Shown here: positions 2,480 to 5,412 of the stretch, piece after piece
Position numbering within the stretch: the first letter of the stretch is position 1
Layout: every line of letters begins with the position of its first letter
IMG/VR virus record: IMGVR_UViG_2718217860_000001
Length of the DNA stretch: 49,063 nucleotides
Origin: a virus
Taxonomy: Duplodnaviria > Heunggongvirae > Uroviricota > Caudoviricetes
Direction: 5' to 3' (one strand)
Notes under the pieces: generated by a model
What the model was told of the DNA's origin: nothing
What the model saw: only the letters and a program-made list of their open reading frames with translations
Database searches by the model: none
Program-made: the position numbers and the translations under genes

Positions 2480-4059
2480 TTAGTTATCTGACAGATATGA
2501 TGAGATGGTAGCAGAATCGACACCATGTCCACTTATCATAATAACTTTAAGACTCTTTATTAGTTCATTCTTGAAGCTATCCGATTGCACAGGATTTTTC
2601 TCGACCCAATATCGATATGGGTTATCTTTAACTCGTCCTTTGACTTGGTCCTGAAATTGAGTCGTATGTGCAAAATCTTTAAACAGTTTTCTCACTCTCC
2701 CGCCATGATTTTTGTTAACTTTTTTATAATTATCTATAAGGATTTTTAAATCAATCGGAGCGTTACCAATCTTTAGCGTTGTAATTATGTCTTTAGCTGT
2801 TTTCATAAAAACAGATTTTGTAAATTTATTTTTATTTTCCCAATATGCATCATCAGGTGGTAAATTATATAAAAACTCAAAAATCATTTGGTCTGGAGGT
2901 AAGGTGCTTGGAAGCAAACATAAGTTTTTTTCTTTTTTGGCTTTTTTTGCATTAGCACTGTTGTCGTGAACAACATCACCGTCTAAGACGATCAAGCTTT
3001 TAGCTGTAAATTCTGGTATTTTTCTTGCCATTAAGTCAAGCATGGCAGAGCAGCTAATATTTATATTCCCTAATGGATTTAATATTTTATTTATTTTTCG
3101 ATCTGTTATCAATTGTTTGAAAAAGTCGAAACCTTCTTTGTCTTCAAAATATACATTTGCTTTTGGAAGACAAATGTCATCATTAATTTTTACAGTTTCA
3201 ACATGTAAATCAGCGTGGATATCTGTCCATGAAAGATTATTCTTTGTTTTAATATCTCCATATGTGTCTGTAAGATATATTGTTTTAAAGCTATCACTAT
3301 CTTGTTTTGAACGATTATAGATATCCTCTATTATTAATGGAGAGTGCGAGGTCATGATTATTTGCAGATCGTATTGTTTTGCTGCTTTAGTTAGAATATT
3401 AATTAGCTCTAACTGTGCAGCAGGGAAAAGACCTGCATCGGCTTCATCAATTAACAATATTCCGCCATGATAATCAGAATAAGTTTCCTTCAATCTTTTA
3501 AATGAAAAAATTGCTTGGATTAATTGTCCAACATTATCTTCACCAACAGATACTGATTGGTGATCATAATTGTCACCATGGACAACCATTGAATCGATAG
3601 TACCTTTTGTTGCTGTTACTGAGCTTCCATTGTTTTTTAGTAAGAGTTGGTTACTCATCATTCTGATTTCATCAGAATTTTCATTGATGTACTGAACATC
3701 CCGTGTTGAGTAATCAGTCCTTAATGTAATAGGAAGAAGTCGTGCTAAGCTTAAAAAAATAACAGGATGAGTAACGTTTCTACTTTGGTTTTTTTCCGGT
3801 ATTGAATCATTTCCCCTGACTACAGGCCTTGATTTATCTCTGTCACTGTAGCTGTATAAACCTAATGTTAGTTTTTCAAGATGTTTGTTCGATGCACCAT
3901 CATAGACACTAATTTTGACGTCCATTGAACCAGGAACATCAAATTGTTCTGAAAGCCTAAAATGTTCGCTGAAAGCTGACTTGAAGCTGCCATTTGTTAA
4001 TGTTTTATATTGTGTTAAATCAGTCTCAGGGTTTTTGGTAAAGTCCTTTGTAAAGCTAA
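2480..4059 (-). pseudogene. C-terminal part of an IS5-interrupted ABC ATPase with Toprim-like C-terminal domain (OLD-like)
   Basis: Reading frame is open upstream of the called Met (3925) all the way to the IS5 boundary at 4059, with no start codon. Contains Walker B ILLIDEADAGLF and H-loop MTSHSP typical of AAA_15/AAA_21 ABC ATPases. C-terminal region has a candidate Toprim signature: KEGFD and, ~50 aa later, LIVLDGDVV. Confidence 0.75.
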
Positions 4060-5254
4060 GGAAGGTGCGAATAAGCGGGGAAATTCTTCTCGGCTGACTC
4101 AGTCATTTCATTTCTTCATGTTTGAGCCGATTTTTTCTCCCGTAAATGCCTTGAATCAGCCTATTTAGACCGTTTCTTCGCCATTTAAGGCGTTATCCCC
4201 AGTTTTTAGTGAGATCTCTCCCACTGACGTATCATTTGGTCCACCCGAAACAGGTTGGCCAGGGTGAATAACATCGCCAGTTGGTTATCGTTTTTCAGCA
4301 GCCCCTTGTATCTGGCTTTCACGAAGCCGAACTGCCGCTTGATGATGCGAAACGGGTGCTCTACCTTGGCACGGATGCTGGCTTTCATGTATTCGATGTT
4401 GATGGCCGTTTTGTTCTTGCGCGGATGCTGCTTCAAGGTTTTTACCTTGCCGGGACGCTCGGCGATCAGCCAGTCCACATCCACCTCGGCCAGCTCCTCG
4501 CGCTGTGGCGCTCCTTGGTAGCCGGCATCGGCTGAGACAAATTGCTCCTCTCCATGAAGCAGATTACCCAGCTGATTGAGGTCATGCTCGTTGGCCGCGG
4601 TGGTGACCAGGCTGTGGATCAGGCCACTCTTGGCATCGACACCAATGTGGGCCTTCATGCCAAAGTGCCACTGATTGCCTTTCTTGGTCTGATGCATCTC
4701 CGGATCGCGTTGCTGCTCTTTGTTCTTGGTAGAGCTGGGTGCCTCAATGATGGTGGCATCCACCAAAGTGCCTTGGGTCATCATGACGCCTGCTTCGGCC
4801 AGCCAGCGATTGATGGTCTTGAACAATTGACGGGCCAGTTGATGCTGCTCGAGCAGGTGGCGGAAATTCATGATGGTGGTGCGATCCGGCAGGGCGCTAT
4901 CCAGGGATAATCGGGCAAACAGGCGCATGGAGGCGATTTCGTACAGGGCATCTTCCATGGCACCGTCGCTCAGGTTGTACCAATGCTGCATGCAGTGAAT
5001 ACGCAGCATGGTCTCCAGCGGATAGGGCCGTCGGCCATTGCCCGCCTTGGGATAAAACGGCTCGATGACAGCGGTCATATTCTGCCATGGCAGAATCTGC
5101 TCCATGCGGGAGAGGAAAATCTCTTTTCGGGTCTGACGGCGCTTAGTGCTGAATTCACTATCGGCGAAGGTGAGTTGATGGCTCATGATGTCCCTCTGGG
5201 ATGCGCTCCGGATGAATATGATGATCTCATATCAGGAACTTGTTCGCACCTTCC
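4060..5254. mobile_element. IS5 insertion sequence, complete 1195 bp
   Basis: Terminal inverted repeats GGAAGGTGCGAATAAG (4060..4075) and CTTGTTCGCACCTTCC (5239..5254). Flanked by 4-bp target-site duplication CTAA at 4056..4059 and 5255..5258. Length equals canonical IS5. Confidence 0.95.
4206..5186 (-). CDS. insH: IS5 transposase InsH
   Basis: 326-aa [16 protein letters not shown]...RQWERSH, near-identical to E. coli IS5 InsH as I recall it. Confidence 0.95.
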
Positions 5255-5412
5255 CTAAATATTTGGGCGATAATGCCAAGAATTGTGGATTTAGATGTGC
5301 CATTTTTACCACAAATAACAGTTAGGCGAGAACCAAACTCGATGTTTATATTTTTCAGTCCGCGAAACTTCACAACATTTATATTTTTTAGTTTGGTAAT
5401 TTGATTTGCCAT
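5255..5412 (-). pseudogene. N-terminal part (Walker A) of the same IS5-interrupted ABC ATPase gene
   Basis: MANQITKLKNINVVKFRGLKNINIEFGSRLTVICGKNGTSKSTILGIIAQIF carries the P-loop GKNGTSKST. After removing IS5 plus one CTAA copy (1199 bp) the frame continues without a stop into 4055 and on to 2480, giving a ~576-aa protein. Confidence 0.7.

Follow-up and report, generated by a model that had tools for sequence, protein, structure and literature searches.

Within the 49,063-nucleotide window analysed here (the whole of the virus record IMGVR_UViG_2718217860_000001), a lambdoid prophage carries an ATPase gene that is interrupted by ISKpn26, an insertion sequence (IS) of the IS5 group, next to an intact gene for a Dam-like DNA methylase. 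By far the most probable account, in our judgement, is that ISKpn26 transposed recently, in the single Escherichia coli strain Co6114, into the effector gene of a prophage module resembling restriction-modification (RM) or abortive-infection systems, with loss of the effector and retention of an orphan methylase, and that the event is most simply regarded as neutral. The evidence comes from the exact boundaries of the element, from the uninterrupted allele in other E. coli genomes, from the distribution of the element and its target sites, and from the predicted architecture and partnership of the interrupted protein.

The inserted element and the interrupted gene

Reading of the 3600-5700 region, with the ends checked by script, identified a complete IS5-group element of exactly 1195 bp at positions 4060-5254 on the minus strand. 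Its terminal inverted repeats (GGAAGGTGCGAATAAG at 4060-4075 on the plus strand and GGAAGGTGCGAACAAG, the reverse complement of 5239-5254, on the minus strand) agree at 15 of 16 positions, with a T/C mismatch at position 13 that is likewise present in the repeat pair of IS5 from E. coli K-12. The 16-bp pattern GGAAGGTGCGAAYAAG, which describes both ends, is identical to the repeats of K-12 IS5A and has two matches in the window, namely these two ends, compared with 0.03 expected by chance. The element is flanked by a duplicated CTAA, with the left copy at 4056-4059 (TTAG on the gene strand, nucleotides 155-158 of the interrupted gene) and the right copy at 5255-5258; this is a site of the YTAR type, for which IS5 has a known preference, and CTAA is present only once at the empty site of E. 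coli strain 410. A duplication of 4 bp is what remains when a staggered cut is repaired, and an assembly artefact was rejected because the combination of this precise duplication with exact IS ends is the signature of transposition. The only long open reading frame (ORF) within the element (4206-5186, minus strand) encodes an intact InsH-type DDE transposase of 326 amino acids, co-oriented with the split ATPase gene, that matches the NCBIfam IS5 family transposase model NF033581 (E = 1.4e-110, 369 bits, cut-off 140) and the Pfam families DDE_Tnp_1 (8e-36) and DUF772 (3.4e-21).

When compared with K-12 IS5A (NC_000913, 273955-275149), the element differs at 70 of 1195 nucleotides (94.1% identity) and its transposase differs from InsH1 at 7 of 326 residues, whereas over all 1195 bp it is 100% identical to copies labelled by the Prokaryotic Genome Annotation Pipeline (PGAP) as 'IS5-like element ISKpn26 family transposase', which are found on chromosomes of E. 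coli and on plasmids of both E. coli and Klebsiella. Given this identity, and to judge from the PGAP-labelled copies, the element is ISKpn26, a close relative of IS5 that shares with it the length of 1195 bp, the 16-bp repeats of the K-12 type, the 4-bp duplication at a YTAR site and the 326-residue DDE transposase, and that is set apart from canonical IS5A by the DNA identity and the seven amino acid changes given above. The ISfinder reference length of ISKpn26, as quoted in PMC8796155, is 1196 bp, compared with 1195 bp for the present copy; ISKpn26 is known for plasmid-to-chromosome jumps that inactivate genes, e.g. mgrB (PMC8796155).

Deletion of positions 4060-5258, i.e. the IS and one copy of CTAA, restores a single minus-strand ORF of 577 codons, starting with MANQ, that is identical at 1734 of 1734 nucleotides to the gene for an 'AAA family ATPase' (WP_061358157.1) of E. 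coli strain 410 (NZ_CM132960.1). A 1200-bp empty-site query assembled from the flanks gave an end-to-end match in 85 complete E. coli genomes (100% identity in strain 410), and the continuity of the gene in these genomes rules out that the two fragments are separate genes. The break lies inside codon 53 of 577, and the insertion added 1199 bp, which is not a multiple of three. The 5' fragment of the gene (5255-5412, minus strand) consists of codons 1-52 plus two nucleotides and includes the Walker A motif (G35-S42, GKNGTSKS); after residue 52, it continues through nine IS codons (REGANKFLI) to a stop at 5227-5229, for a product of 61 amino acids. The 3' fragment (2480-4059, minus strand) consists of codons 53-577 plus the stop codon and includes the Walker B motif (ILLIDE, residues 252-257) and a Toprim-like region (residues ~345-577); its longest restart ORF, 481 codons from M97 with the ATG at 3925, keeps both. 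Because the insertion cuts off Walker A from both the remainder of the ABC ATPase and the Toprim-like domain, and translation stops after nine IS codons, the Co6114 allele is null for the full-length protein.

The original prediction, made from the sequence alone, had described an intact 1195-bp IS5 with a CTAA duplication, a full InsH ORF and perfect 16-bp terminal repeats, inserted in frame after about codon 51 of a single, undecayed ATPase gene. The length, the duplication and the complete transposase are borne out, and so is the unity of the gene, for which the comparison with uninterrupted alleles suggested at the time yielded the 85 complete genomes with an intact allele. Other details require correction: the repeats are imperfect at one position, the element belongs to the IS5 group although it is ISKpn26 rather than canonical IS5, and the gene is indeed split, albeit inside codon 53 and out of frame.

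Origin of the insertion and competing explanations

Among 5426 complete E. coli genomes, none contains the flank/IS junction. The ATPase-methylase pair is present as one uninterrupted piece of 2848 bp in 85 of the 85 complete E. coli carriers, 83 of them at 99% identity or more, and annotation spot-checks of the carriers showed both genes at full length and without a pseudogene flag. The 78-codon ORF created by fusion with the IS is on record in one contig only, the chromosome of E. coli isolate Co6114 (CP016034.1; GCA_001672015.1), from which the window is thereby shown to come. The lack of decay in the flanks (0 substitutions in 1734 nucleotides), together with the identity of the IS to other copies, indicates that the insertion is recent, as originally proposed, and these comparisons show it to be specific to strain Co6114.

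A full-length copy of ISKpn26, 100% identical to the one in the prophage, is located at 92172-93366 of the resident plasmid pC06114_1 (CP016035.1), where it adjoins catA1; a second copy on this plasmid is truncated, split by another IS and situated within the tra region. As regards the recent transposition burst that the original prediction offered as an alternative, the copies found in the window and on the resident plasmid are one in the former and one intact plus one fragmented in the latter. The donor was probably the identical element on this NDM-1 IncF plasmid. pC06114_1 is a 129-kb conjugative plasmid of the IncFIA/FIB/FII type that carries the resistance genes blaNDM-1, rmtB1, blaOXA-1, aac(6')-Ib-cr, catA1, tet(B), erm(B), mph(A), sul1 and dfrA12, and also encodes a type I RM system and an antirestriction gene.

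The density of potential target sites differs markedly along the prophage, with 24.2 YTAR sites per kb in the ATPase gene vs. 5.5 per kb in the prophage body (4.4-fold), and the gene contains 42 of the 372 YTAR sites of the restored window while occupying 3.6% of the length of that window. Because of this density, an untargeted hop of an IS5-type element is disproportionately likely to end in the ATPase gene. The guanine-plus-cytosine (GC) content of the module is 33%, compared with 52% in the prophage body. Under the account that we favour, ISKpn26 would have hopped, probably from pC06114_1, into the CTAA inside codon 53 of a gene that appears to encode the effector of a two-gene, RM-like or abortive-infection module of the prophage; the module would thereby be inactivated and its methylase orphaned, and loss of the effector with retention of the methylase would be a tolerable order of loss for an RM-like pair. 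A neutral event would be the simplest account of such a change, low-GC foreign cargo being dense in IS5 target sites, and the insertion itself is an ordinary gene knockout by an IS. Several points weigh against this interpretation. The defence role of the module is argued from homology, conserved pairing and position in a mobile element, and neutrality is not provable from a single allele. A 481-residue product that starts at M97, and so lacks the first 96 residues while keeping the Toprim-like domain, could in principle be made. The case for the plasmid as donor is circumstantial, and other identical copies may sit elsewhere on the chromosome.

The original prediction had seen in the insertion a sign of selection against an active ATPase/nuclease. 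Such an adaptive loss, whereby the active protein would be costly through autoimmunity or would block useful plasmids or phages, appears improbable to us, although several observations are compatible with it. The insertion struck the effector and not the methylase, an order of loss that an RM-like pair can survive, and the host is multidrug-resistant and carries a large conjugative NDM-1 plasmid; however, if the IS came from this plasmid, the plasmid was in place before the gene was lost. Cloning of the related PD-lambda-5 system required a host deleted for mrr, which shows that modules of this kind can carry a cost (PMC9519451). In the Logan assembly ERR4859580 (locus L089, 1660-1670), the same gene has GGTAAAATGG in place of GGTAAAAATGG, so that an A5 run within the Walker A codons is one base pair shorter and the gene is split into calls of 82 and 481 amino acids. 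This deletion could be a second, independent knockout; yet the assembly is built from short reads and is metagenome-like, and a frameshift in a homopolymer may be an error there. The search yielded a single IS allele, both genes are full-length in every one of the complete carriers, nearly all of which are at least 99% identical, and the target-site density supplies a neutral reason for the choice of this gene. No positive evidence of selection emerged, and the low GC content of the gene together with its excess of YTAR sites favours a neutral hit.

A regulatory role of the insertion, whereby the IS would drive or enhance expression of the methylase or of the truncated, Toprim-containing product of 481 amino acids, seems to us very improbable indeed. 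IS5 alters expression at bgl, flhDC and glpFK in K-12, the present element is co-oriented with both the ATPase and the methylase genes, the ATG at 3925 opens an ORF that includes Walker B and the Toprim-like domain, and the two genes are separated by a segment with a hairpin and a promoter-like site, so that methylase expression may be separable from that of the ATPase. Against this, promoter-like matches are no more frequent in the region than chance would give (10 observed vs. 13.2 expected), the truncated product would be devoid of the P-loop, and plain gene disruption accounts for all of the observations.

If the element did come from the plasmid, the insertion illustrates how a resistance plasmid can supply the chromosome with IS copies that wear down immunity genes carried by prophages. 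Co6114 (effector-null) and strains 410 or 042 (intact) would form a natural allele pair for the function of the module.

The OLD-like ATPase and its methylase partner

The N-terminal half of the interrupted protein matches AAA_15, AAA_21 and SMC_N and contains the Walker A and Walker B motifs. A full-length AlphaFold model (predicted local distance difference test score, pLDDT, of 87) retrieved with Foldseek the Thermus OLD nuclease (6p74), GajA and the OLD nuclease of retron Eco8, with E values of 1e-11 to 3e-9 and alignments spanning both halves. Pfam searches of 35 family members at E values up to 1 gave no model over residues 340-577, including no match to Toprim or DUF4435. When modelled alone, the C-terminal region (pLDDT 94.8) is predicted to form a four-strand beta-alpha domain followed by helices; E357 and D411-x-D413 are invariant in 35 homologues and are located, respectively, just after strand 1 and just after strand 3 of the model, which is the Toprim arrangement. 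On the strength of these models, we conclude that the interrupted protein is OLD-like, i.e. an ABC ATPase joined to a predicted Toprim-like domain, and that it is a putative nuclease; the label 'ATPase/nuclease' of the original prediction, which corresponds to the ABC ATPase in the N-terminal half and the modelled Toprim-like C-terminal half with its E357 and D411-x-D413, appears reasonable. Proteins of the OLD-like ATPase/Toprim architecture are DNases or tRNases (bioRxiv 10.64898/2026.07.10.737580).

The protein resembles the OLD family (P2 Old, GajA, the retron Eco8 effector) and AriA/AriB of PARIS in its N-terminal ABC ATPase, its predicted C-terminal Toprim-like domain with a conserved glutamate and DxD motif, and its carriage by mobile elements. 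However, the sequence similarity to these proteins is limited to the ATPase motifs (E values of 1e-15 to 1e-20, partial profile coverage), and the partner is a DNA methylase rather than a helicase (GajB), a reverse transcriptase or a separate AriB. PtuA, GajA, AriA and MAD3 were each considered as the identity of the ATPase and rejected, given that the matches are partial, confined to ATPase motifs and far below the family cut-offs. For a MADS MAD3-type ATPase, model NF047739 gave 31 bits against a cut-off of 420, and there are just two genes between the integrase and the attachment site.

The partner gene (1501-2400, minus strand) lies 79 bp downstream of the ATPase gene on the same strand and encodes an intact, Dam-like N6-adenine DNA methylase of the D12 class (299 amino acids, DPPY at residues 194-197) that differs from the counterpart in strain 410 at 1 of 900 nucleotides. 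It belongs to the PD-Lambda-5_B family of PADLOC (PDLC04018; 411 bits, 5.8e-124, full length) and also matches MTase_II (3.4e-107); by comparison, PD-Lambda-5_B gives 402 and 380 bits with the methylases from two genuine PD-lambda-5 loci of other E. coli genomes. In a survey of 80 loci encoding relatives of the ATPase, from Gammaproteobacteria, Betaproteobacteria, Bacteroidota, Mycobacterium, Listeria and others, 73 have a co-oriented homologue of the methylase as the next gene downstream, separated by 9-147 bp (median 20); in 5 of the remaining loci the homologue is nearby, and 2 end at a contig edge.

The intergenic segment (2401-2479), read on the gene strand, contains a hairpin with a GC stem followed by a T-run, overlapping a promoter-like TGGCCA-17-TATACT with an upstream TG (2455-2427). 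To judge from these consensus matches only, transcription of the methylase gene may be independent of that of the ATPase gene.

PD-lambda-5 is a validated two-gene system that consists of a ParB/HEPN protein and a methylase and gives broad protection; it was cloned in an mrr-deleted host and was termed by its authors a compact prophage 'RM+Abi' system (Vassallo et al. 2022, PMC9519451). The present module is similar in its methylase, which scores with PD-Lambda-5_B, in the two-gene combination of effector and methylase, and in its place as prophage cargo, whereas the effector of PD-lambda-5 is a ParB/HEPN protein of ~470-500 amino acids and the one here is a 577-residue ABC ATPase with a Toprim-like domain. 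No PD-Lambda-5_A model is among the 25 best PADLOC hits of the ATPase, all of which are ATPase models, whereas the A models give 248-558 bits with genuine PD-lambda-5_A proteins (loci L086 and L087). The identification of the locus as PD-lambda-5 was rejected, the A component being absent.

Orphan methylases classically arise when the nuclease gene of such a pair is lost and the methylase gene is kept. The tight linkage of a Dam-like methylase to a putative nuclease is reminiscent of a type II RM system reduced in this manner; the differences are that the putative nuclease is ATP-dependent and OLD-like, not of the PD-(D/E)xK or HNH type, and that specific cleavage and protection by methylation are only putative in the present case.

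In E. coli, members of the methylase family are also encoded next to a 573-residue 'ATP-dependent nuclease' on an integrative and conjugative element (ICE; L084), next to a 569-residue ATPase that is 47% identical to the Co6114 protein, beside intE in an e14-like prophage (L085), and next to ParB/HEPN effectors, either after a lambdoid Q antiterminator gene (L086) or in a P2 hotspot (L087); the methylases of these loci show 67-70% nucleotide identity. The methylase thus looks like a shared component that is combined with swappable effectors. The pair in the P2 hotspot spans 2460 bp, in agreement with the 2461-bp PD-lambda-5 insert of ECOR7.

Literature searches for a system composed of an OLD-like protein and a methylase found no description of the pair, and the broken gene points to a conserved, apparently uncharacterised combination of an OLD-like ATPase/nuclease with a Dam-like methylase. 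It is conceivable, and we suggest this tentatively, with somewhat more doubt than conviction, that this pair is a widespread defence module in which a PD-lambda-5-type methylase is retained and the ParB/HEPN protein is replaced by an OLD-like ABC-ATPase/Toprim nuclease. If so, prophages, ICEs and P2 hotspots would share one methylase 'chassis' to which different effectors can be fitted, and in Co6114 an IS from a plasmid would have produced a natural derivative with a null effector and an orphan methylase.

The prophage and its flanking regions

Immediately upstream of the ATPase gene is the gene for the prophage tyrosine integrase (5471-6637, minus strand). The ssrA gene, which encodes transfer-messenger RNA (tmRNA), is at the right edge of the window (48662-49024, minus strand), and a 27-bp repeat of its 3' end (48662-48688) is found at 1396-1422 on the plus strand, marking the attachment-site boundary. 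Because of this copy of the ssrA 3' end, the methylase and ATPase genes are placed inside an ssrA-integrated lambdoid prophage of ~47 kb that is bracketed by the attachment-site-like (att-like) ssrA repeats. The module is cargo between the integrase gene and the attachment site, a typical position for cargo. Beyond the att repeat, a second island begins with a P4-type integrase (1-1272), and the arrangement looks like a tandem integration of the two elements at ssrA; in carriers without the neighbouring P4-type island, the methylase gene is the last prophage gene before glaH.

When the region 1424-5470, outside the ATPase gene, is compared with strain 410 (L001), a single base differs, and this base is in the methylase gene. 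The segment 34-4059 aligns with strain 410 at 93% with 21 gaps, the divergence being clustered left of the att repeat, in the island with the P4-type integrase, which in the window is a different allele from that of strain 410. The far end of the prophage, where the gene for tail-fibre assembly is followed by ssrA, has in between two ORFs of 419 codons (45532-46791, minus strand) and 277 codons (47651-48484, minus strand), which gave no Pfam and no PADLOC match. The stretch that holds these two ORFs (45404-48661) has a GC content of 37% and is cargo at this opposite end of the prophage.

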